Notes: generated from the sequence alone by a model not told the origin. Counted from the stretch's first letter, positions 9,718 through 27,509 are shown. The stretch: 64,000 bases of DNA from a phage (GCA_027263115.1 GCA_027263115.1_3656.1), one strand, 5' to 3'. Numbers and translations are program-made.

Positions 9718-10068
9718 ATGAAAATAAAACTATATTACCTTAATGAGCTTAACCCCCTTGCCCAGGTCCGCGCCATAGCTAATACCTTGATTTGTGAGAA
9801 ATCTGTATATTGTGTTGAGCTTAACGCCATGCGTGAACGTCTCAAAGGTGGTTACTTTGACATCCATACTGCAATCAACGGCCTGAATATGGAATTTATA
9901 CGCTTACGTAACAGCCGCTGGAATCTGGCAAGAATGGAACAAGATCCGGCCTACCTTCGTAAGCTGGTTATTGAAAATCATCTGATGTTTAATGCCGAGG
10001 GTGATTATTACCATTTTCACCGCAGACGCTGGTACCGTGGCGGCAATACAGGCAAGAATGCAAAATAA
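9718..10068 (+). CDS. hypothetical protein
   Basis: 116 aa ORF following previous gene. Confidence 0.5.
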   Translation: MKIKLYYLNELNPLAQVRAIANTLICEKSVYCVELNAMRERLKGGYFDIHTAINGLNMEFIRLRNSRWNLARMEQDPAYLRKLVIENHLMFNAEGDYYHFHRRRWYRGGNTGKNAK

Positions 10069-14877: not shown

Positions 14878-15165
14878 TAAGGCAACTATGCAAACGAATG
14901 GCATGGCGCGACGGAGTCGCGACATAATATAAAAGCAGTAACCATCACCCCCGTGATAGTTTGTCTGCAATCTATTAATCAGATCATAGTTGCCTTGTAT
15001 TTAGTTAATCATGACATAACAAGCAAGGCAACTATAGATCTGCTAATAGTTGCCCTGCTTTTATATTATGTCATAGGAACGCCCGAAGGGGTGACCTAGT
15101 CACCTGGCATAGCCAGCGAAAGATTATTAACTTGGTAATAGTTATCATGCAAACGAATGGCATGG
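14878..15165. repeat. nested palindromic region: 18-bp inverted repeat (about 14921-14938 vs 15055-15072), 19-bp direct repeat ATGCAAACGAATGGCATGG x2, AGGCAACTAT/ATAGTTGCC inverted copies
   Basis: Reverse complements and direct copies read directly in the sequence; no ORF with a ribosome-binding site. Confidence 0.65.
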
Positions 15166-15179
15166 CTTATCATCTCTGT

Positions 15180-15420
15180 GTAAACAGTCAATCATGTAAA
15201 CTATTAGATATGTAAACAGTAAAGGGCGTGAACAGTAAGCGAGGGAATAGTAATAGCGTGAATAGTGACAGCGTAAACAGTGACAGCGTAAACAGTCAGG
15301 CATGTCAATTATGTCATATTGTGTCACCATTATGTCACTATTGTGTCACCAGTATGCCCAGTATGTCAATTGAGTCTAAAGTGTCAAAGGTGTCAGACAA
15401 GTTTTTCTCCTCTTTGTCAA
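15180..15420. repeat. tandem short-repeat arrays (GTAAACAGT family incl. 15-mer TGACAGCGTAAACAG x2; then 22-bp TTATGTCAYTATTGTGTCACCA x2 with further TGTCA units)
   Basis: Direct reading; track ORFs here are low-complexity artefacts of the repeats. Confidence 0.7.
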
Positions 15421-16866
15421 GTGCTGCATGAAAAATTTACAAGCTTGTATGGTAGCATTTTTGCGGCCCGTTTACATTCAGTGATGTATGTATAACCCTT
15501 GTTGTGTGGGAGTTTAGACGTCTAGACGGTTGGAAGTCTGCAGGTCAATATCTAATCTATCGGCTGCTAACTATATCCCACACAAATAGTAAGAAATATA
15601 ATTGTTATATGTGTAAACAGTAACTCATGTTATCAATCCCTGTATGGATCGCCAGTGGTGCGCATAATGGGTATTATGTTAAATTGCCCGTAATGATAAC
15701 AGTTCTCACAATGATAGGTATTCTCATTCATCCACACAAAATAGGTTGCAAATGTTGTGCCACTGTGTGAACGGCCTGGCCTATTAATTTCTCTCACTGC
15801 CTCGATATTTGAGGATTGTTATAAGAATGAGAAGTATTCCCATTCCGTCCGCCTGGCAGCGCTCCTGTAGGTCCTGCAAGGACTCTAGCTGAAAGCTAGA
15901 CCCTTCGGGCCTCCCTGTAGGTCAGGTCAAAATCGTGGCAGAACTGAGCCTGTTCAGATATTTCTGGCTGACTCTTCAGGTCTGTGTGGGAAAAGCCAAC
16001 CTCTCCGGCGGGGCAGGGGAGGGAGGTAAATTAAAAAATTTACGTGGTGTATGAAGCGCTCTTCAGGTAAGGCAGGTATTATGTGATGAAACCCTCTTCA
16101 GGCAATGATATTTGTGGGTGTGATATTTGCTGGAAAGCCAGATATGACGGGACTCCCGGCGGGGCAGGGGTAGTACAGACGGGGGAAATATGGGGATGTA
16201 GTTGGGGAAATTGATCAGGCAGGTAGAGTATGGAATATGTTACAAGTATGTTAAATATGGAGGTTGAATATCTGTAGGATTTGTGTGTAAAATCAAAGAC
16301 TTAAGTGGTGTTGTGGTATTTTCTATAAATAATTCAAGTTTAATAGGTAATATTTGCCTCTATCCACTTTGTGTGGTAAACAGATTCAGATGAGATTAGT
16401 TTACAAGTGTATACATAATATACAAATTAAAGATACAAGAAACCCCCCTCCCCCCTTCGGCTACCATTCACCTTTTCCTCTGACTGGTACTTAAACACTT
16501 ATTCAGACTCTTCAGGTTATCACCCATATATCATATGGCAGTGACTGGTGTCCTCCGGCCCCTCTTTCGTCACCCGTCCGCTTCGCCATGCTAATGCCAT
16601 AGCTAATGGTTCGGTTGTTCACCCTGTTCACTCAGGTGTATCTCTATACCCCTTCAAACCGAAGAGAACAGAAAACCCGAATTACTCGGTAAAAGAAAAG
16701 AGAAGAACTTAATTTTATCAGGATAGGCAAGAATGTCAAGGCATGACTGCTCACTAAACAAGCAAACAGTCATGTGTGGGAGGTAAGTGATTGTGGTGGT
16801 AGGAAATTTAGTTGAAAGATGTGTTATAGGTGCTTCCAGCACTTTAGCCGGGCAGCTAATTGTGTG

Positions 16867-17082
16867 TCAGTCCAGCGGTTCATCCTCTACTTCACTGAAA
16901 TCAATGTTCATGGTCTCTTCCCAACCATCGATCTCAGCACAAGAGTGGAGTTCTTTAGGGTTTACTCCCAAAGCCTCAGCAACAGAGTCTATATTTAACA
17001 CCTCTGGCAGGTATGATTCATCGAATTCAAGGTAAATCAGGCCACGAGTGTTGTCAGCTCCACCAAATATCTCTATCTTCAT
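16867..17082 (-). CDS. hypothetical protein (distal end of leftward block)
   Basis: 71 aa, ATG preceded by GAGGAG on minus strand; N-terminus MKIEI like several upstream paralogs. Confidence 0.5.
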   Translation of the reverse strand: MKIEIFGGADNTRGLIYLEFDESYLPEVLNIDSVAEALGVNPKELHSCAEIDGWEETMNIDFSEVEDEPLD

Positions 17083-17776: not shown

Positions 17777-18088
17777 CTATACCCATGATGGCTTATCAAG
17801 GTTGGAGTAGCTGAAAGGTGTCAAAAGGTGACTGTCAAAATCTCTCAAACTATCCAGATCTTTTTCCTCGTCCTGACACCATCTGTGCCTGCATTTATTG
17901 TTGTAGTGCATAGAATGCATGGCGTTCTGCAACTTAACAGGCACAAGTGATTCCGGAGTAGATAGTATTGTTGGGTATGCCAGAACCACCTCAAACAGTG
18001 GAAACACATCGAAACTAAAATCTACCTCTGCAGAGGTTGATGGCATGTAGGAGTATTTAGCCGTCTTTGTAGACATAATCCACCTCAC
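17777..18088 (-). CDS. hypothetical protein
   Basis: 103 aa, ATGA coupling with upstream gene. Confidence 0.5.
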   Translation of the reverse strand: MRWIMSTKTAKYSYMPSTSAEVDFSFDVFPLFEVVLAYPTILSTPESLVPVKLQNAMHSMHYNNKCRHRWCQDEEKDLDSLRDFDSHLLTPFSYSNLDKPSWV

Positions 18089-19561: not shown

Positions 19562-19849
19562 TCATAGTGCCTCTAAGATTTCATATCCTTCGGGTCGGAA
19601 TACAAGCCACTCCGTGGCTCCGTTTGGTCGATACGCTTTATACAGAACAACCTGGTCTCGGCACATGCACATGGCTACATAGTTTTCATCCACACCTGCA
19701 GCCTGCATTGCATCTTCTTCTCCGGCAACTGCTTTGCTTACAACTTCCTTGGTAGGCAGGTGTGCGATCAGCTCGTCACCATCATTAATTCCAAAATGGC
19801 TGAGTTCGCCGTTGGTATCTTTAATCTTAATCTTAACCAGATCTTTCAT
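19562..19849 (-). CDS. hypothetical protein
   Basis: 95 aa; stop overlaps next start. Confidence 0.55.
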   Translation of the reverse strand: MKDLVKIKIKDTNGELSHFGINDGDELIAHLPTKEVVSKAVAGEEDAMQAAGVDENYVAMCMCRDQVVLYKAYRPNGATEWLVFRPEGYEILEAL

Positions 19850-20178
19850 TAGTCTTCCCCCAGGTTCAAAGGTCCTAAGATTTCATATGCCAGATTAGAA
19901 GTTACAAGAGGGTCTTCTGCGTCTTTAGTATTATACCACCCGTGAATAACCAGAGTCCCACTTTGTTTCATGTCCAACTGGAACTCTTCTGCCGTTTCCT
20001 CATCCAGCTCCAAGATTTCCATAAGGTATTTGATGTTAGGGAGGTATGCAGCTGTTACAGTCCCCTCTACCAGACCTTCAGGCCAACCTACATCTGGATG
20101 ACAAGTAGGAACCAGGTTGGTCAGCTTAATGGTGTACGCTTTTTCTGCACGAGCCTTCAGTAACGGGTCAATCTTCAT
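19849..20178 (-). CDS. hypothetical protein
   Basis: 109 aa; 1-nt overlaps on both sides. Confidence 0.55.
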   Translation of the reverse strand: MKIDPLLKARAEKAYTIKLTNLVPTCHPDVGWPEGLVEGTVTAAYLPNIKYLMEILELDEETAEEFQLDMKQSGTLVIHGWYNTKDAEDPLVTSNLAYEILGPLNLGED

Positions 20179-20528
20179 TATTCGTCCTCCTCTTCGGTAC
20201 CTGCTTCCAGTAATAAGTTAAGAATATCTTCTGCACAAGGTTCATAGAACTCTTGGCCTTCATTATCGATGATTTTGTAGTCATCTCCACGAATAATCAG
20301 GGGATCACTCTCAAAATTATCGAGACCTTTAACAACGACAACACGATCGATTGCCATCATTGTAAGAACTTTATCGACATCTTCCTCTGCTACACCATAC
20401 TGCAGCAGAATGTCTTTGGTAGGAGGAACAGCATCCACCACAACGCCGTTACCAAAACCTTCTGGAAGTTTAGCTAAAATATCTTCCGGAACCACATTCA
20501 CATCAAAACCGGTAATTTCTACTTTCAT
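20178..20528 (-). CDS. hypothetical protein (MKVEITG paralog family)
   Basis: 116 aa; acidic C-terminus. Confidence 0.55.
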   Translation of the reverse strand: MKVEITGFDVNVVPEDILAKLPEGFGNGVVVDAVPPTKDILLQYGVAEEDVDKVLTMMAIDRVVVVKGLDNFESDPLIIRGDDYKIIDNEGQEFYEPCAEDILNLLLEAGTEEEDE

Positions 20529-20789
20529 TTACAGCACCTCTTCGTCAACTACTTCATAAAAATGGCCTGGGATTGCAATAGCGTTCTCACCTTCACCTAC
20601 AAACACAGTTCCGTCAAGAATCAACATCATAAGAATTTCTGTAATATCCTCTTCCGGAACGTTGCCAAAACCTTTAATCAGCTCGTAGGTTGGAATATTT
20701 ACCTCTAAGATGTCACCATCTTTAGAACGGAAATCAACACCGTCCTGAATCTCTGCCGTTTCAAGGTTTTTCAATTTAATCTTCATCAA
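20529..20789 (-). CDS. hypothetical protein (MKIKL paralog family)
   Basis: 86 aa; minus-strand promoter TTGACA-N17-AATAAT at about 20819-20847. Confidence 0.55.
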   Translation of the reverse strand: MMKIKLKNLETAEIQDGVDFRSKDGDILEVNIPTYELIKGFGNVPEEDITEILMMLILDGTVFVGEGENAIAIPGHFYEVVDEEVL

Positions 20790-20865
20790 TCGGTCCCCTG
20801 TCTTGTTAAGATGAAGGTATTATTTCACACAGGGTTGGCGTTGTCAACACCTGTGTGCAAGAAAA

Positions 20866-21261
20866 TTACTGAAACAGTGCGGATAAATTACCTTCTGGTG
20901 GGAACTTATCTGCCAAAAACGGTGTTAGCACAGTAGCCTTCTGAAGATCTGGGGTCCACTCGTTGTTCAGAACATCCCAGTAGTACGCAATGTTGCTGTG
21001 TGGGTGCCGCATTACGAACTTTTTCCCTTCGTAGTCATCTGAAACCTCTACAGAAGAAATAACAACAGAATCTTCAAGGGTTTCTTCATAGAAAGATCCA
21101 CCTTCAAATTTCCAACGAGATGCAAGAGCCCCTGCCTTGAACGCTGCAGATAACGGACTGTCGGCAAGAACATACATTTCTTGCACTCTGTCGCTGCGAT
21201 CTTTGCTTCTTACGTTGTATACAGTATCTGAGCTATACTCAACACGGTATAGGCTTACCAT
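20866..21261 (-). CDS. hypothetical protein (paralog of 23068..23466)
   Basis: 131 aa; shares HP...YYW...WTP motifs with 23068..23466. Confidence 0.55.
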   Translation of the reverse strand: MVSLYRVEYSSDTVYNVRSKDRSDRVQEMYVLADSPLSAAFKAGALASRWKFEGGSFYEETLEDSVVISSVEVSDDYEGKKFVMRHPHSNIAYYWDVLNNEWTPDLQKATVLTPFLADKFPPEGNLSALFQ

Positions 21262-21593
21262 TACCGCACCTCCTCAATAACTTCCACATCTGAACCTACC
21301 ACAAATGCAAAAGGACAGGTTTCATGAAAGATATCCGGATCGCCGCCAAGCTTGCTAACAATTTCTCCACCACTAATAAACACAAGCTCACCGATATTCA
21401 TCAGATTGCTGAAATAGTACCCATAATGATTAAAGAATGCAGCAGGGTCAGGTAGACTAGTAGCCTCAAGCACTACATCGGTTGAGGTTACTTTCTTATC
21501 ATAACCTCTCGCCTTTTGAGATGCAAGATCTGCAGAATCCTCAGGCGACCGGAGATGCATAGGAATTGTTTCACCAATAAAGCGTACTTTCAT
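21261..21593 (-). CDS. hypothetical protein
   Basis: ATG after GGTGA (track ORF 21261..21620 opens with TTG). Confidence 0.5.
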   Translation of the reverse strand: MKVRFIGETIPMHLRSPEDSADLASQKARGYDKKVTSTDVVLEATSLPDPAAFFNHYGYYFSNLMNIGELVFISGGEIVSKLGGDPDIFHETCPFAFVVGSDVEVIEEVR

Positions 21594-21597
21594 ATTA

Positions 21598-21861
21598 TCA
21601 CCCAACAACCATAGCTTCAAAAGGAGTCATGAACGAATAAACGGCATCATCATCTGCTTCAGGGAATGCTCCCAAAGACTTCATATCTGAGCCCTTGACA
21701 AATACAAGGTTTTGATCAAAGGCTTCTTGGGGGTCAATCCGATACATATTTCGTAAAATATCGCTTACCTCCTCATCAAGAGGTGAGTATGCTGTGCACG
21801 TTTTTCCGATCAAGCTTTGAGAATCAGGGTATCCACCTGAAGTTTTAAAATAAACAATCAT
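21598..21861 (-). CDS. hypothetical protein
   Basis: 87 aa, tiled array. Confidence 0.5.
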   Translation of the reverse strand: MIVYFKTSGGYPDSQSLIGKTCTAYSPLDEEVSDILRNMYRIDPQEAFDQNLVFVKGSDMKSLGAFPEADDDAVYSFMTPFEAMVVG

Positions 21862-21952
21862 ATAGTATCACCTCTGGTAAGAGATTGGGACTCCTTTCCC
21901 ACAAATAATTACAAATCTTCCTTAGCGAGGAAGTATGCTAATCCAAGCAGGA

Positions 21953-22222
21953 TTATTCCTCTACAATCTCATACACATCAGGAGTTACAATCAACTCTTC
22001 TCCGTTACCCGGTGCAACAAACACCACCAAACCTTCAGGTGTGTGCTTTTTAGCCATCTCGATAACATCTTCTCGCAGAGCTGGCTCCATCAGATCAAAA
22101 CCTTCACCTAGGGCATCACGAACCACCTTCATATAGTCCACTGGTTGTGCTTCAACAATCATGCCTTCAACCAGTCCACAATTTTTGTCTGCCAGCTCAG
22201 TTTGGAATAATTTAATTTTCAT
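21953..22222 (-). CDS. hypothetical protein (MKIKL paralog family)
   Basis: 89 aa; C-terminal VYEIVEE. Confidence 0.55.
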   Translation of the reverse strand: MKIKLFQTELADKNCGLVEGMIVEAQPVDYMKVVRDALGEGFDLMEPALREDVIEMAKKHTPEGLVVFVAPGNGEELIVTPDVYEIVEE

Positions 22223-22248
22223 TTAGAGGTCTCCTCAATTATTTGATA

Positions 22249-22350
22249 TTAATAGCCGTAACCTAACACATTAACTACAACTGCGATTGCAAACATAATT
22301 TCAAAGCATGCAATCTCTACACTTGGGACTAATTTCTTAATCACGCCCAT
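22249..22350 (-). CDS. small hydrophobic peptide (33 aa)
   Basis: ATG after GGAGAATGAGGTG on minus strand, just downstream of hpf. Confidence 0.35.
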   Translation of the reverse strand: MGVIKKLVPSVEIACFEIMFAIAVVVNVLGYGY

Positions 22351-22359
22351 TGTAGCACC

Positions 22360-22677
22360 TCATTCTCCAAAGTCAATCTTTACTTTTCCTTTCCCTTTAC
22401 CTTTCTTTCCACCGCATTTAGCCAGCTGACGTGCTGCAACATCTACCATACGGTCAGTTGCCTCGTAAGCATCACTGCCTTTAGCTTTGGCAATAACTTC
22501 TTTTCCAGAAGTGTCAAAAATGAACGCCATAACTTCCTGGTGATCATTTTCAACTTTTACACTTACACGTGCATGATTTACAGAAGGATGTAGACGCTCC
22601 AGTTTTGACATTTTGTGGGAAATGAAAGACACCATACCTTCGGTGATTTCTACGTTGCCAGTAATCTCAATTTGCAT
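22360..22677 (-). CDS. hpf: ribosome hibernation promoting factor (HPF/RaiA family)
   Basis: 105 aa; MQIEITGNVEITEGM...LERLHP...ARVSVKVE...EVIAKAKGSDAYEATDRMVDVAARQLAK parallels E. coli HPF; lysine-rich tail. Confidence 0.8.
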   Translation of the reverse strand: MQIEITGNVEITEGMVSFISHKMSKLERLHPSVNHARVSVKVENDHQEVMAFIFDTSGKEVIAKAKGSDAYEATDRMVDVAARQLAKCGGKKGKGKGKVKIDFGE

Positions 22678-22724
22678 AACGTGTTCCTTTTAAAGAAGAG
22701 AGAATAACTCTCTCTTTGAAAACA

Positions 22725-22753
22725 ATAATACTATAACTGAAGCGTTGTGTCAA
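22725..22753 (-). promoter_or_regulatory. sigma70-type promoter TTGACA-N17-TATTAT (minus strand) for hpf
   Basis: Consensus hexamers, followed on minus strand by an AGAGAG/CTCTCT leader hairpin. Confidence 0.55.
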
Positions 22754-22759
22754 CAGTTT

Positions 22760-23050
22760 TTACAGATTGTTGTCGATAGTATTTAAAATATCTACAGCAA
22801 GATCTGCCATTTTTCGAACATACTCTGCAAACTCAACAGGATCCTTGATCAAAGAATTCACAGGGTCGTACCCTAGAGCGTTTAAAATGGCTGCAGCATC
22901 TACAACCTTCTCATCATTTGCGAAGATCTCTCCGTCAAACTTGTAGGTCCATTTTGAGTCAACCTTAGCAGAGCAGGGTTTGTCCATGCTTGTTACACCA
23001 TCGTCTTTAAACTCTCCTGCGTTATCAATATTTAGAATTAAATCCATCAT
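22760..23050 (-). CDS. hypothetical protein
   Basis: 96 aa, tiled array. Confidence 0.55.
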   Translation of the reverse strand: MMDLILNIDNAGEFKDDGVTSMDKPCSAKVDSKWTYKFDGEIFANDEKVVDAAAILNALGYDPVNSLIKDPVEFAEYVRKMADLAVDILNTIDNNL

Positions 23051-23067
23051 GGTGACACCTCACTGTT

Positions 23068-23466
23068 TCAGTTTAGCTTTTCTTCAACAACCCCATAACT
23101 TGGGGCAGAGTCAAGAGCTTTCTGGTTTAAAAGTGGCGTAGCAGAATCTGCAAACGGTGTCCAAGTTTTTGTTCTGGCATTCCAGTAATGCTTCACTCTG
23201 GAATCTGGATGCACTATAACAAAAACTTTTTCACTTGTCAACACATTAATTTCTTCTACACCCTTGCTGATAATTTCTCCGTCATAGCCCCCAGTCTGGT
23301 ATCCTTCGTACCAGGTTCTTGCATAGGCATAGCCAGCCTGCCAGCATGCAGCCTCCTCCGAGGTGGAGACTACGTAGAAGTCTTTCTCAAATTCTGGAAT
23401 ACGCCCTTGCTTTACGCTCCAAGCCCCGCGAATTTTCATTGTAACTTTAAACAGTTTATTTTTCAC
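23068..23466 (-). CDS. hypothetical protein (paralog of 20866..21261)
   Basis: 132 aa; shared HPDSRVKHYWNARTKTWTP-type motif. Confidence 0.55.
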   Translation of the reverse strand: MKNKLFKVTMKIRGAWSVKQGRIPEFEKDFYVVSTSEEAACWQAGYAYARTWYEGYQTGGYDGEIISKGVEEINVLTSEKVFVIVHPDSRVKHYWNARTKTWTPFADSATPLLNQKALDSAPSYGVVEEKLN

Positions 23467-23478
23467 AACGGTTACCCA

Positions 23479-23733
23479 TCACAGCTCTACAATATCTGCA
23501 TCTGACCCTACCCCAAAGGCATAGTAGGACTCTTCCCCGAAATAATATTCAGGTGCACCAGCGGTGATCAGGTCTGATCCCAAGATAAACACCACGTTGT
23601 GGCCTACATAACTGTGATGTTGCCGCACAGGATCATCCCACGGCAACCCTTCAAAGTATACCGCAGGAACGACCTTTCCATTCAGGAAGGATTGTCCCAA
23701 GTAGACGTTAGAATCAAGAATTTTAACCTTCAT
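23479..23733 (-). CDS. hypothetical protein (MKVK / DLIAAGA paralog family)
   Basis: 84 aa; motifs MKVKILDS, DLITAGA. Confidence 0.55.
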   Translation of the reverse strand: MKVKILDSNVYLGQSFLNGKVVPAVYFEGLPWDDPVRQHHSYVGHNVVFILGSDLITAGAPEYYFGEESYYAFGVGSDADIVEL

Positions 23734-23950
23734 GATCGTCCTCCACTACCTCTACATCCTCACCTAGGGCAAAGTTATAGGTCCACTGACTGTCAAAGCA
23801 TTCCTGAGATGCACCAGCGGCAATAAGATCTGCTCCTTTTATTTTTAAAAGGTCAGGGTAATCTTCGTTAGGGACAGCAGTAAACACTTTTCCTACTAAA
23901 GGCTCCTGACCAATATAGAAGCTTGAATCTAAAACTTTAACTTTCATCAA
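23723..23950 (-). CDS. hypothetical protein (MKVK / DLIAAGA paralog family)
   Basis: 75 aa; motifs MKVKVLDS, DLIAAGA, VEVVEDD. Confidence 0.55.
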   Translation of the reverse strand: MMKVKVLDSSFYIGQEPLVGKVFTAVPNEDYPDLLKIKGADLIAAGASQECFDSQWTYNFALGEDVEVVEDDHEG

Positions 23951-24234
23951 CGGTCTCCATCAGGTGGTTGTGGGACGTAAACACTGTTACGAATATCGTC
24001 AGCAGTGTAGTAATAAGTGGTTCCAACCCTGTCTCGGGCTGCAATGTACTCTGCTATACCAATAAGTGCCATTGATTTGGTGGCGTATCTTCCCAACTCG
24101 TTAGCTCCCCAGTAGAATTTAGACCAGTAGGGAATAAGACCGAACAAATATACCTTTTGACGAACTTCCCAGTAAGTGCCTTTTCCGACAAGTTTAAACT
24201 CTACTTCACTACTGTTAATCTTTTTCATTATCAA
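23947..24234 (-). CDS. hypothetical protein
   Basis: 95 aa, ATGA coupling. Confidence 0.55.
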   Translation of the reverse strand: MIMKKINSSEVEFKLVGKGTYWEVRQKVYLFGLIPYWSKFYWGANELGRYATKSMALIGIAEYIAARDRVGTTYYYTADDIRNSVYVPQPPDGDR

Positions 24235-24527
24235 TCTCCCTCTACCGTGGTCGGATTGTCAGTAAGAAATTGAGCATTGGCTGGAGGCACGCCTGACATT
24301 TTCCACACAACCATAAGTTTGTAACCAGGCACTCTATTAAGTGCAGATCGAGTAGAGTTTGTGCACGTATACTTTCGCTTTCCAAACCCGTTCTCCATCA
24401 TAATCCAGTACCCAGTATCTTTGTCACCAGGTATCGGTAGACCACCTTCATCAACCCACTGAATGGACCACGGCACGATGGCTACAGCTTTATATTTAAA
24501 CTTTTTAAACCACTCAAAAAGTTTCAT
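24231..24527 (-). CDS. hypothetical protein
   Basis: 98 aa, ATGA coupling. Confidence 0.55.
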   Translation of the reverse strand: MKLFEWFKKFKYKAVAIVPWSIQWVDEGGLPIPGDKDTGYWIMMENGFGKRKYTCTNSTRSALNRVPGYKLMVVWKMSGVPPANAQFLTDNPTTVEGD

Positions 24528-24712
24528 AATTCAGCCTCGCTTGGCAACTCTTCTACCTTAACATGCCGAAAAGTGTTACCGTAATGGTTGATCCATGACA
24601 TCAGCTCGCTTTCTTGCTCTTCCTCTGGGATGAACTCTCGAATGCTGACAAGTTTTAAGAAAACCCAATCACAATCTGCACCCATTCTACCAGACAGGCA
24701 ATAGTGCTTCAT
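24524..24712 (-). CDS. hypothetical protein
   Basis: 62 aa, ATGA coupling. Confidence 0.5.
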   Translation of the reverse strand: MKHYCLSGRMGADCDWVFLKLVSIREFIPEEEQESELMSWINHYGNTFRHVKVEELPSEAEL

Positions 24713-24730
24713 AAAACCCTCCTGCCTGGT

Positions 24731-24925
24731 TTAGAATATTGCTTCTTCCATTGCGCCTGAGAGCAACAAAGAGGTGATCTGGCTAACATTCATCTCAGAC
24801 TCTACTTCCTCCCCTTTGAAAGGTTCGCGGCAGAATAGGACTGTTTCAGGACTTTTACTTCGAACAATATAATACAAATCATTCAATGTGTTGTAGTAAT
24901 AAGTGTTAAAACGTAAGTTTTTCAT
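24731..24925 (-). CDS. hypothetical protein
   Basis: 64 aa. Confidence 0.5.
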   Translation of the reverse strand: MKNLRFNTYYYNTLNDLYYIVRSKSPETVLFCREPFKGEEVESEMNVSQITSLLLSGAMEEAIF

Positions 24926-25209
24926 TTTCTAGTCCTCTTCTTAGATTTTTGGGGAGAAACGCTTTCTGCAATACGAGACAGACGTTCTTCTGAAGCCTTA
25001 CCTACTCCAGGTTTTTTGAGTGGATTATCTTTATGACCACAATCCAACTGGATATTGGATACCTCTCCAACTTTGTAAGTCAATTCTAGCAAAAGGTTGT
25101 CGTCCTTGTCAAATGTTTTTACGATAAATTTTTTATCGTTCTCCTGAACTTCATATCTGGTACCTGCAGTATACAGCATGGTGCCATCAGCATAGGATAT
25201 CCAGATCAT
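24922..25209 (-). CDS. hypothetical protein
   Basis: 95 aa, ATGA coupling. Confidence 0.55.
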   Translation of the reverse strand: MIWISYADGTMLYTAGTRYEVQENDKKFIVKTFDKDDNLLLELTYKVGEVSNIQLDCGHKDNPLKKPGVGKASEERLSRIAESVSPQKSKKRTRK

Positions 25210-25553
25210 TGAGCCTCCTTTTGCTGCAACAGCATTAACTCTTTGTTAGAGATCTTTACTGCTGTTTTTATTGTTCCATCTTCACGAAACCACGACCAGA
25301 ACTCTACAGTGTCACCACTATCAAGTAAAGCATGCCCATGGTAAAAATCTTTGTCCTTAGACAGTTTCTCATCTATATCTGCATCAACACATTCGTGATC
25401 CATAGCATTTTGCCTGAACGCATCGGTTATGCCAATGCACGCCTTGCTCTCAAGACTGGTATATCCGATATCTTTTAATTCAGTTTCCCAAGTCCAGTAC
25501 CCTATAAAAGCTAAAACAGCTACCCACAGTAATAACGTTTTAATCTTTGGCAT
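25206..25553 (-). CDS. hypothetical protein with N-terminal signal/anchor
   Basis: 115 aa; hydrophobic N-terminus LLLWVAVLAFIGYW. Confidence 0.55.
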   Translation of the reverse strand: MPKIKTLLLWVAVLAFIGYWTWETELKDIGYTSLESKACIGITDAFRQNAMDHECVDADIDEKLSKDKDFYHGHALLDSGDTVEFWSWFREDGTIKTAVKISNKELMLLQQKEAQ

Positions 25554-25615
25554 TCTCTCTACCTCTTTCTTAGTTTATTTCACTATGGCACATCCTTTGT
25601 GCCATATCTCAACTA

Positions 25616-26086
25616 CTACTTAAATAGTAGTTCAAAATAGTGCAAAATTAACAGAAGTTGAACTACACCTAGTGCAACGGCGAGTATGTTAATCTTAGAA
25701 TCGAAAAACTTCTTAACTTTTACTCTAAAAGGTTCCTTAATGTCCTTTACGATCCTATCTATAGATGACCTCATATCTCTGATTACCATCCTGAACATTA
25801 AAGACGGATGCTCCCCCATCTCTGTAACGGAATCGAAAACATACTCTCTTCGGTCATAAGGGCCGCCAGCTCTGCGTATTAACCTCTCCACAGAGACCTC
25901 GAACGTCACACCTGTAACGTAATCATCTATAACAAGTCGTGACGGGTCTTTACCTTTACTATCAAGAGGTATCAAAGTTATCTTTCCAGATTTTGTTAAA
26001 ATTTCCCCTTTTTCAAGCAAGGTGTACCAATGCTCTCTGCCAAGACTGTTGAGGCACGTTTTTACATATTTAACAAACATCGTCAC
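25616..26086 (-). CDS. hypothetical protein with C-terminal TM helix
   Basis: 156 aa. Confidence 0.55.
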   Translation of the reverse strand: MTMFVKYVKTCLNSLGREHWYTLLEKGEILTKSGKITLIPLDSKGKDPSRLVIDDYVTGVTFEVSVERLIRRAGGPYDRREYVFDSVTEMGEHPSLMFRMVIRDMRSSIDRIVKDIKEPFRVKVKKFFDSKINILAVALGVVQLLLILHYFELLFK

Positions 26087-26286
26087 CCCTCATCGCACGT
26101 CTGATATAACCACTCTATAAAATCTTGATACCATTCGCCCTCTGAGCGCTCCGTAGGCCAATAATCTTCACCCTCTCGTGCATTAAAATCTGAGTATTCA
26201 ACTTTCCACTCCTTTACCAGCTCGTGGAGAAGGTTTTCAGCCTGCTCTAAAGATTTATTTTTTACCATTGCTGTCTCCTTTTTCAA
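26083..26286 (-). CDS. hypothetical protein
   Basis: 67 aa, ATGA coupling, SD AAAGGAGA. Confidence 0.5.
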   Translation of the reverse strand: MKKETAMVKNKSLEQAENLLHELVKEWKVEYSDFNAREGEDYWPTERSEGEWYQDFIEWLYQTCDEG

Positions 26287-26351
26287 GATAGTTATACATC
26301 AGAACTGCACCACCTAAGATGGCTACCAGTAACAATATCCCAGATAGCATC

Positions 26352-26504
26352 TCAATAAACATGGCTTGAAACACTGGAAGGTCTCCCTAAATTAACGCAC
26401 CATTTTAAATACATGCTCTTTTCCCATAAAGGTGCCTGGCTAAGATCTGCGTAGAACGCAATCTCTTTAAGAACAGTATAGATAGTTTTAGGTGCGGTCT
26501 CCAT
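26352..26504 (-). CDS. small hypothetical protein (50 aa)
   Basis: Internal ATG preceded by AGGAAGGAGA (track ORF 26352..26540 trimmed). Confidence 0.35.
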   Translation of the reverse strand: METAPKTIYTVLKEIAFYADLSQAPLWEKSMYLKWCVNLGRPSSVSSHVY

Positions 26505-26715
26505 CCCTACTCTCCTTCCTGATATTCTTGTAGTAATCAACTAGGCACATTATTACGATGAAGATAACAACAGGCCAAAAAGGTGCAGCAGTGATGATGG
26601 TGATAAAATCATCAAACTTCACCCTTCGTCTGGACACGATGCATACACCTGTCAAGAATACCGCTGTTATAACGGACATTACCAGGTAACCTATTAGCAC
26701 AACATTTATACTCAT
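26488..26715 (-). CDS. holin-like small membrane protein (two TM helices, charged C-terminus)
   Basis: 75 aa; two hydrophobic helices and a KESRDGDRT tail. Confidence 0.4.
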   Translation of the reverse strand: MSINVVLIGYLVMSVITAVFLTGVCIVSRRRVKFDDFITIITAAPFWPVVIFIVIMCLVDYYKNIRKESRDGDRT

Positions 26716-26745
26716 TGGTCCTCCCTTTGTAGGTTAAATTGTATA

Positions 26746-27279
26746 CTACAAATGGTCGCTGAGGGTGTCAAGAAAATTATCCCGTTCTTTCTCAGAGTTT
26801 TCATGTGTGTAGCTGAAAAACATATCGAGAATAACCTTATTGATATATTCCAGCTCCTCTGTGTTCAGATGCTTAGCAGGATCTACAATGACATCCCAAA
26901 TATCATACAGACCACACTCATGATACCCATAACGCCACTCAATTGTCAAGCTGAGCGGCAAATCTTTACCTTCACAAACAACCTTCCATCTACATATGTT
27001 GGTATCTGGTCGTACCTGTGCACGGTACACCTGCACAAAATCCAATTTGAATTTGAGGTACTCGTCATACAATTTAAGCACAAAGCTCTCGATTTGTGGA
27101 GACACTTTTGCAGCAAACTGTGCGTATTTGTACTTGCACTGGATGATCTTTCTGCGTTTTGCAGTTAAATTTTTTGCCGCCAGTTGTTCTTCAGTGTATC
27201 TCCACCTACGATCAACAAACGCAACAGGGTCTTTGTCCCCATAGAGGTCTTCCCAGTTAATCAGAAGCATACCTGTCAC
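26746..27279 (-). CDS. hypothetical protein
   Basis: 177 aa. Confidence 0.6.
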   Translation of the reverse strand: MTGMLLINWEDLYGDKDPVAFVDRRWRYTEEQLAAKNLTAKRRKIIQCKYKYAQFAAKVSPQIESFVLKLYDEYLKFKLDFVQVYRAQVRPDTNICRWKVVCEGKDLPLSLTIEWRYGYHECGLYDIWDVIVDPAKHLNTEELEYINKVILDMFFSYTHENSEKERDNFLDTLSDHL

Positions 27280-27509
27280 TCCTCCACAACTTCAAGGCCT
27301 TTACCGCCTCGCTCTGGCAGATTACTTAAAGATAGGTAATACATATAATCAGGAGAGATCCTGCCAGACTCTGCACCTGCAGCTAGTAAATCCTTCCCTT
27401 TAACCAGGACAACATTCTCGTTTGCAGATAGCCGTTTTGCTTCCACAATTTTACCAACACAGTCAACCAAGGAAGGGTACCCTAAATCTGTAAGAAATTT
27501 AACTTTCAT
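27276..27509 (-). CDS. hypothetical protein (MKVK / DLLAAGA paralog family)
   Basis: 77 aa; motifs MKVKFLTD, DLLAAGA, VVEE. Confidence 0.55.
   Translation of the reverse strand: MKVKFLTDLGYPSLVDCVGKIVEAKRLSANENVVLVKGKDLLAAGAESGRISPDYMYYLSLSNLPERGGKGLEVVEE

Follow-up and report, generated by a model that had tools for sequence, protein, structure and literature searches.

A stretch of phage DNA of 64,000 nucleotides (GCA_027263115.1_3656.1; in the following, the window) contains, at positions 19562-27509, a leftward block of small genes, twelve of which belong to three paralogous families designated A, B and C, with five, two and five members. The paralogy of these genes is established, as are their dispensability on Escherichia coli K-12, the purifying selection acting on them, and the conditional need for some of them on CFE311, a uropathogenic E. 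coli. The fold of families A and C, a small SH3-like β-barrel, is a prediction. The genes are host-specific accessory genes, and a role in counter-defence is plausible. We give about even chances to the following reading: the three families are small, mostly acidic cytoplasmic accessory proteins that originated from old duplications in the Vequintavirus lineage, and some of them neutralise a strain-specific host factor, which is likely an immune system.

The phage is a Vequintavirus. Its block is 99.5% identical to Escherichia phage Murica and matches 122 phage records, essentially all of them from the genus Vequintavirus (rV5-like virulent myoviruses), in which nearly all of its genes are annotated as "hypothetical protein". 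It makes up the distal portion of a long unit transcribed leftward, at the head of which are nucleotide-metabolism genes, followed by PhoH, a ClpP-like protease and a methyltransferase. Genes are named here by their lower coordinate; their positions and counterparts are listed in Table 1.

An all-against-all blastp comparison of 36 leftward open reading frames (ORFs) yielded three clusters. The core of family A is formed by 23479, 23723 and 27276, which are linked by blastp E-values of 1.8e-14, 7.7e-7 and 4e-3, by Smith-Waterman z-scores of 23, 13 and 6.6 (versus 2000 shuffles) and by hhalign P-values of 6e-25, 2e-14 and 8e-7. All three match the whole profile of PHROG 5009 (23479, E 4e-32; 23723, E 2e-38; 27276, E 8e-36). 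A profile of these three sequences, applied to the 545 six-frame ORFs of the window, added 21598 (E 1.9e-6) and 21261 (E 6.5e-5) and nothing further at E<2. All five genes are joined by hhalign, with shuffle z-scores of 6.6-23; the P-value is 1e-6 for 21598 and 27276, and 2.5e-6 for 21261 and 23479. The match of 21598 to PHROG 5009 is weak (1.2e-4), and none is listed for 21261. In the whole genome of Murica, family A consists of exactly these five genes. Its members 23479, 21598 and 21261 carry insertions at one common position, which is located between strands 2 and 3 of the predicted structure. Family B comprises 20866 and 23068 (blastp E 6.8e-10, shuffle z=16.9), both of which contain the motif HP..YW..WTP and match PHROG 7379 over profile positions 1-131/131 (E 2e-66 and 4e-74, respectively); there is no third member in the genome.

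The third family, C, consists of 20529, 20178, 21953, 19562 and 19849, which give long collinear mutual alignments. In leave-one-out profile searches of the 545 ORFs, the gene left out was in each case the top non-training ORF (E-values of 3e-8, 1.7e-7, 2.6e-5, 1.8e-4 and 2.2e-3), and the next-best ORFs followed at E-values of 1-4. An earlier reading of the window from its nucleotides alone (the sequence-only reading) had recognised the core of family A, whose MKVK start, DL-I/L-x-AGA core and VE-V/I-VE end are all present, and also the pair 20866/23068; blastp, shuffling and PHROG profiles confirm both. Its membership list was less accurate beyond this point, because 21598 and 21261 were missed, as were 19849 and 19562, and because 20529, 21953 and 20178 had been taken for looser relatives of the first family. 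These three are not detectably related to family A (E>2 with its hidden Markov model, cross-family shuffle z of 1.0-1.7); they belong to family C. The same list had included 16867, which is a relative of none of the families (shuffle z<=1.0, family C profile E 4.1).

The merging of A and C into a single family was rejected at the level of sequence: the hhalign comparison of A versus C gave a probability of 13.7% and a P-value of 0.002 over merely 31 N-terminal columns. Two further observations concern family C. In the rV5 record DQ832317, the ortholog of 19562 is split into ORF153 and ORF154 (L018:9102-9372), which is due to a frameshift mutation or a sequencing error. A protein of 98 residues encoded on a contig of 657 bp (P0127) is a chimera of the C-terminal half of a 19849-type protein and an unrelated N-terminus with Pfam PF24132.

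The functional evidence stems from the public transposon-insertion maps of phage Bas54 (MaxBurger), which are part of the HIDEN-SEQ preprint (10.1101/2025.11.20.689424) and whose genes were assigned to those of the window by sequence identity. Identity between the Bas54 and the window proteins is 98-100%, and 99-100% for the four that are depleted on CFE311. On K-12, insertions were tolerated in all twelve orthologs, nine of which were classified as non-essential and three as intermediate (HIDEN-SEQ Data S2). The intermediate class comprises bas54_0151-0153, the orthologs of 21261, 21598 and 21953; the ortholog of 20866 is non-essential. In the comparison of K-12 with CFE311 (sheet Data S7), the mean counts of the orthologs of 21598, 21261 and 20866 dropped to zero and that of 23068 dropped to a lesser extent (Table 1). 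The ortholog of 21953 showed a log2 fold change (log2FC) of -2.78, which was not significant, and the other seven members, 27276 among them (log2FC +0.72), were unaffected. Insertions in the upstream genes bas54_0155 and bas54_0154 were without effect on CFE311. Note that in supplementary file 9 the table in front of Data S7, which from its place should be Data S6 (K-12 against CFE303), has exactly the numbers of Data S7, so that no CFE303 results can be taken from it.

Only two genes, bas54_0063 and bas54_0140, were validated as needed against DS-28, a defence system of CFE311 (10.1101/2025.11.20.689424). The ortholog of bas54_0140 is 17777..18088 on the minus strand (98% identity, PHROG 12072), which lies in the same leftward block. 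Like the four depleted family members, bas54_0140 belongs to the block of small genes of uncharacterised function, can be dispensed with on K-12 and loses its insertions on CFE311 in the same experiment. In contrast to them, it has an unrelated sequence, its host target has been identified, and a knockout has been tested. The presence of this ortholog in the block, together with a family A homolog in an accessory slot of prophages (see below), provides the context for a host-specific role.

The structure prediction that the sequence-only reading had proposed for the small proteins gave confident models for both families that were modelled. AlphaFold2 folded 23723 (alignment of 34 sequences) with a predicted local distance difference test score (pLDDT) of 92.9 into a small barrel of five strands and a single short helix. 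The model of 20529 (alignment of 32 sequences comprising five C groups, pLDDT 87) has the same five strands, and strands 2 and 3 are separated by an insert of two helices. Both are SH3-like small β-barrels, and their five-stranded topology superposes on solved SH3/KOW domains. The sequence identity of the models to such barrels (the Sho1 SH3 domain 2vkn, the Spt5 KOW domain 4zn3, PsaE) is 10-17%, and family C differs from them by its two-helix insert. The resemblance indicates a fold class, not a functional family. The A and C members tested gave no match at E<=1 in Pfam, including SH3/KOW; family members did not rise above noise in NCBIfam; nine of them and 17777..18088 gave no match at E<=0.01 in PADLOC; and solved structures yielded nothing significant when searched with profiles of A, B and C. 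A Foldseek comparison of the family A model with predicted structures of viral proteins (BFVD) retrieved uncharacterised phage proteins only. According to the models, A and C appear to have in common one fold class only, which is compatible with a remote shared ancestry, albeit no proof of it.

Most A and C proteins are acidic, with isoelectric points of 4.1-4.7 and net charges of -7 to -21. The charge of several members, taken alone, does not establish that they are DNA-mimic anti-restriction proteins of the Ocr/ArdA type. DNA-mimic proteins gave no significant profile match among solved structures, and none was among the fold matches listed, which were SH3-like barrels instead.

The duplications are of old date. 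In L011, a divergent rV5-like contig, each of the five A genes has a positional ortholog (45-80% identity), as do 21953 and 20866, and the flanking genes are 29-89% identical; the duplications therefore predate the split of this lineage. The ratio of nonsynonymous to synonymous substitution rates (dN/dS) was determined with FV3, Aya, naswa and bov10K2 as references; Murica and the contigs L012 and L013 were uninformative due to too few substitutions. Pooled values are 0.09-0.22 for family A, 0.03-0.07 for family B and 0.04-0.12 for family C, compared to 0.13-0.19 for other genes of the block; for 23068 alone the value is 0.03-0.06. All three families are thus under purifying selection and display no signature of an arms race. 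The copy number of A, B and C is 5/2/5 in each of the six compared genomes with the full block (with the split ortholog of 19562 in the rV5 record). The sequence-only reading had noted that tandem expansion of paralogs in a virulent phage often marks arms-race genes and had proposed to look for copy-number variation. An ongoing arms race is not borne out by dN/dS values of 0.03-0.22 that do not exceed those of the neighbours, by the orthologs retained in L011 and by the constant copy number.

The exception to this stability is a plastic spot at 23068-23950, where allele replacement, a chimera and deletions were observed. The 23479 allele of naswa has only 79% amino-acid identity in between neighbours of ~100%. 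In the contigs L012 and L013, 23723 and 23479 are fused; the junction of the chimera lies in the conserved D-L-I-x-A-G-A core and matches both 23551-23576 and 23807-23832 of the window. Truncated or fused variants of 23068 exist, and the gene is missing from phage Bas59 (EduardKellenberger). Bas54 lacks 24292-26050 (1.76 kb) and Bas59 lacks a larger segment (Table 1). These independent natural deletions identify 23.1-26.9 kb as a dispensable, plastic region. The gene 25616-26086 on the minus strand, an ortholog of rV5 gp133, which was reported as predominant in virion mass spectrometry, is nonetheless deleted in both of these viable phages.

The order A-A-B occurs twice, as 23723-23479-23068 (cassette 1) and as 21598-21261-20866 (cassette 2), which suggests the duplication of a three-gene cassette. 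A joint duplication of the three genes is presumed tentatively, because the two A genes of cassette 1 are mutual closest relatives while those of cassette 2 are barely alike. Four family C genes (20529, 20178, 19849, 19562) form a tight tandem array right behind one sigma-70-type promoter-like site, and a second such site lies upstream of 21953, 21598, 21261 and 20866 (Table 1). The ATG starts of the family genes are preceded by ribosome-binding sites; judged by these sites and by the N-termini of homologs, ATG 23947, ATG 21593 and ATG 20786 are the likely true starts of three genes. Between the two A-A-B sets, 22360-22677 on the minus strand encodes a RaiA/HPF homolog (ribosome hibernation factor; Pfam Ribosomal_S30AE), which has a sigma-70-type promoter to itself. 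In the Bas54 data, its ortholog is non-essential on K-12 and unaffected on CFE311.

Table 1. Members of families A, B and C and related features of the window. Transposon data are mean counts on K-12 and CFE311, log2FC and adjusted P.
Feature	Positions	Strand	Product	rV5 counterpart	Bas54 ortholog	K-12 to CFE311; log2FC; adjusted P	Remarks
Family A, solitary copy	27276..27509	-	77 aa	ORF127	bas54_0166		PHROG 5009 and profile match
Family A, cassette 1 gene 1	23723..23950	-	74-75 aa, probable ATG 23947	ORF140	bas54_0159		
Family A, cassette 1 gene 2	23479..23733	-	84 aa	ORF141	bas54_0158		strand 2/3 insertion
Family B, cassette 1 gene 3	23068..23466	-	132 aa, or 123 aa from ATG 23439	ORF142	bas54_0157	255.9 to 57.4; -2.14; shown as 0	
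Sigma-70-type promoter-like site	22725..22753	-		P144			11/12 consensus; upstream of hibernation-factor gene
Family C	21953..22222	-	89 aa	ORF146	bas54_0153		leave-one-out E 2.2e-3; hhalign to 20529 over 77 columns
Family A, cassette 2 gene 1	21598..21861	-	87 aa	ORF147	bas54_0152	142.2 to 0.0; -7.16; shown as 0	profile E 1.9e-6
Family A, cassette 2 gene 2	21261..21620	-	110 aa from probable ATG 21593	ORF148	bas54_0151	71.0 to 0.0; -6.17; shown as 0	
Family B, cassette 2 gene 3	20866..21261	-	131 aa	ORF149	bas54_0150	108.3 to 0.0; -6.77; shown as 0	assigned by blastp, PHROG, motif
Sigma-70-type promoter-like site	20819..20847	-		P150			11/12 consensus, extended -10 TG; gap before C array
Family C, array gene 1	20529..20789	-	85 aa from ATG 20786	ORF150			
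Family C, array	20178..20528	-	116 aa	ORF151			net charge ~-21; leave-one-out E 3e-8
Family C, array	19849..20178	-	109 aa	ORF152			leave-one-out E 1.8e-4
Family C, array	19562..19849	-	95 aa	ORF153/154			leave-one-out E 2.6e-5
Non-member of A, B, C	16867..17082	-					separate PHROG, 12108
Segment missing in contigs L012, L013	23577..23806	.					23723 and 23479 fused into one 70-aa chimera
Segment missing in viable EduardKellenberger (Bas59)	23154..26873	.					3.72 kb; takes out 23723, 23479, 23068 and nine other genes

Homologs of A, B and C among 5.8 billion proteins originate almost solely from rV5-like contigs; for family B, these are six clusters, every one of them rV5-like. With single members as queries, tblastn against 50,697 phage records retrieved the genus Vequintavirus only, and in Seunavirus, Mydovirus and Henunavirus, which also belong to the Vequintavirinae, the syntenic 32 kb contain no member of A, B or C. 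A HMMER scan of 1.84 billion representatives with family A yielded 45 clusters at E<=1e-3, mostly of 63-87 residues and a few with two or three tandem copies of the domain. Two family A copies also occur in other, unrelated phages (L020, L022). One cluster, P0032 (309 member sequences), has 27276 as its closest relative in the window (46% identity) and is located between the antiterminator Q and the holin of E. coli lambdoid prophages; its neighbours are unrelated to other genes of the window. P0032 thus fills a slot of the Q-to-lysis accessory ("moron") genes of these prophages. There it exists as a single copy without a family B partner, and its function is equally uncharacterised, whereas the rV5-type phage is virulent and has its copies in an early or middle transcription unit. 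Among the records that are 98-99.5% identical to the block are 18 GenBank entries titled "Campylobacter phage" with the host Campylobacter jejuni (including MG065635, MG065653 and MG065658), which are probably mislabelled or represent contaminating coliphages.

The families have been catalogued in part. The core A genes match PHROG 5009 (related PHROGs 13367, 7345, 8603) from end to end, and this PHROG is also matched by distant relatives from other phages, whereas 21598 (phrog_13920) and 21261 (phrog_13661) are set in families apart; neither a function nor a fold is assigned to PHROG 5009. Each family C gene has its own PHROG (12794, 12457, 12155, 12359 and 11868), so that C as a family is absent from this database. 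Duplication and divergence of small genes was described for T4-like phages such as pf16 (PMC5587285). As in the rV5 block, tandem or nearby duplicates of small hypothetical genes are found there in a large virulent myovirus, although the protein families differ from A, B and C. The rV5 genome paper does not mention paralogs or duplications, and no publication describing the fold, family C, the A-A-B repetition or the phenotype of these genes on CFE311 came to our attention. As a kind, small accessory proteins that phages require on specific hosts are already well known.

According to the reading given at the outset, the host polymerase would produce the proteins from the sigma-70-type promoters. 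Growth on K-12 is independent of them, and particular wild hosts would require some of them; for CFE311 these would be the proteins of cassette 2 and, to a lesser degree, 23068. By binding, the proteins would neutralise a strain-specific host factor, most probably of the immune system, and the diverged paralogs would either cover different targets or cooperate. Adjacency, the repeated gene order and the shared phenotype suggest that A and B proteins may act together, and the predicted fold is in line with a presumed common ancestor of A and C. The host-range or anti-defence role proposed by the sequence-only reading is in part consistent with these findings, namely with the accessory status of the genes and the need for four of them on CFE311; a host range based on adsorption is not indicated. 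A bolder version, to which we assign a low probability, regards A-A-B as a new multi-protein counter-defence module, in which two SH3-like adaptors and a B protein act against uropathogenic E. coli immunity, and A plus C as a ten-copy repertoire of SH3-like binders that was diversified against host targets.

Several findings weigh against a counter-defence role or its details. Eight of the twelve members have no phenotype on CFE311. The preprint (10.1101/2025.11.20.689424) does not comment on the four depleted family genes, and no defence system was matched to any member. Its transposon was built without a terminator; the authors argue against widespread polarity, but a local effect in the series 0152->0151->0150 is possible, and perhaps 20866 alone is needed. 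The enrichment of family members among the 27 significant CFE311 genes (P=0.04; 0.33 with the three neighbouring genes taken as a single event) is too weak to be claimed. Despite missing two genes of family A and one of family B, Bas59 behaves like Bas58 on 11 defence systems and shows the same lysis pattern on six hosts in the BASEL data; on EcoPI, Bas58 formed no plaques and Bas59 had an efficiency of plating of ~1e-3. Moreover, the Vequintavirinae have been described as exceptionally sensitive to restriction-modification systems. With respect to origin, the two A genes of cassette 2 are linked by an hhalign P-value of 0.057, which leaves a joint duplication of the whole cassette unproven, and neither hhalign nor shuffling detected a link between A and C at the level of sequence. 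Finally, the same experiment identified several lateral tail-fibre and baseplate genes (bas54_0028-0031, 0041) as conditionally essential on CFE311, so that a role in virion assembly is conceivable.

A different function, which we consider possible but rather unlikely, is that the proteins modulate host takeover or physiology by tuning transcription, translation or metabolism, and matter where the physiology of the host differs from that of K-12. The genes are co-transcribed with the hibernation factor homolog in a unit starting with nucleotide-metabolism genes, and their promoters are of the sigma-70 type. Strong purifying selection and a stable copy number are expected of proteins with conserved host targets, and bas54_0151-0153 were intermediate on K-12 and not fully non-essential. 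However, counts on CFE311 drop all the way to 0.0, and such an all-or-nothing effect is seen more typically with an immunity barrier than with an adjustment of fitness; according to the authors of the transposon study (10.1101/2025.11.20.689424), immunity varies far more across E. coli strains than metabolism.

The conditional need for fibre and baseplate genes on CFE311 could also mean that the proteins are assembly helpers or chaperones of an alternative lateral tail fibre and required on hosts where this fibre is required, a task that small acidic proteins could fulfil. This is improbable: the genes are located ~40 kb or more from the structural module and behind early-type promoters, searches of Pfam, PHROG and NCBIfam revealed no similarity to known tail-fibre chaperones, the proteins identified in rV5 virions include no family member by name, and the family A homolog of prophages occupies the Q-to-lysis slot, away from the tail genes. 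Similarly doubtful is the assumption that the proteins are weapons against competing phages or mobile elements, acting by superinfection exclusion or against satellites, and that the need on CFE311 reflects a resident prophage or satellite. The lambdoid slot of P0032 often holds exclusion or moron genes, and CFE311, being a wild isolate, probably carries prophages; there is, however, no direct evidence, and the proposal overlaps with counter-defence if the host determinant is a prophage-encoded immunity. That the similarities merely reflect the compositional bias of short acidic ORFs in functionless genes is refuted by the results, even though many proteins of the block are acidic with an MK-I/V-K/E start, cross-family similarity is at chance level and 16867 was a false member: the all-against-all alignments show significant similarity within families (shuffle z 4-23), profile and leave-one-out searches pick the members alone, the structure models have high confidence, dN/dS lies far below 1, and transposon phenotypes exist.

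Two observations concern regions outside the block. About 1.7 kb at 15100-16860, the meeting point of the rightward and the leftward unit, are non-coding and contain at 15179-15368 three adjoining arrays of tandem repeats, whose periods are 15-16, 15 and 11/22 bases. The equivalent region of Bas54 (~2 kb) tolerated zero transposon insertions (HIDEN-SEQ, 10.1101/2025.11.20.689424); it is therefore probable that 15100-16860 is an essential cis element, for example an origin. In a different small-gene block of Murica, beyond the part corresponding to the window (L002:9233-9759), a further tandem pair encodes paralogs of 87 residues (39% identity, E 1e-9), followed at 9759-10022 by a third gene of the same length.

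Much of the genome of large virulent phages is filled by uncharacterised genes, and rV5-like phages are used in the biocontrol of E. coli and in therapy. One such block is now organised into three families, two of them with a predicted SH3-like fold, and into an A-A-B order that occurs twice. The published data set narrows the paralogs down to four genes and one host strain with which a phage-host interaction can be sought. If the target is indeed an immune system, these genes would provide new inhibitors as well as a marker for the host range on clinical strains.

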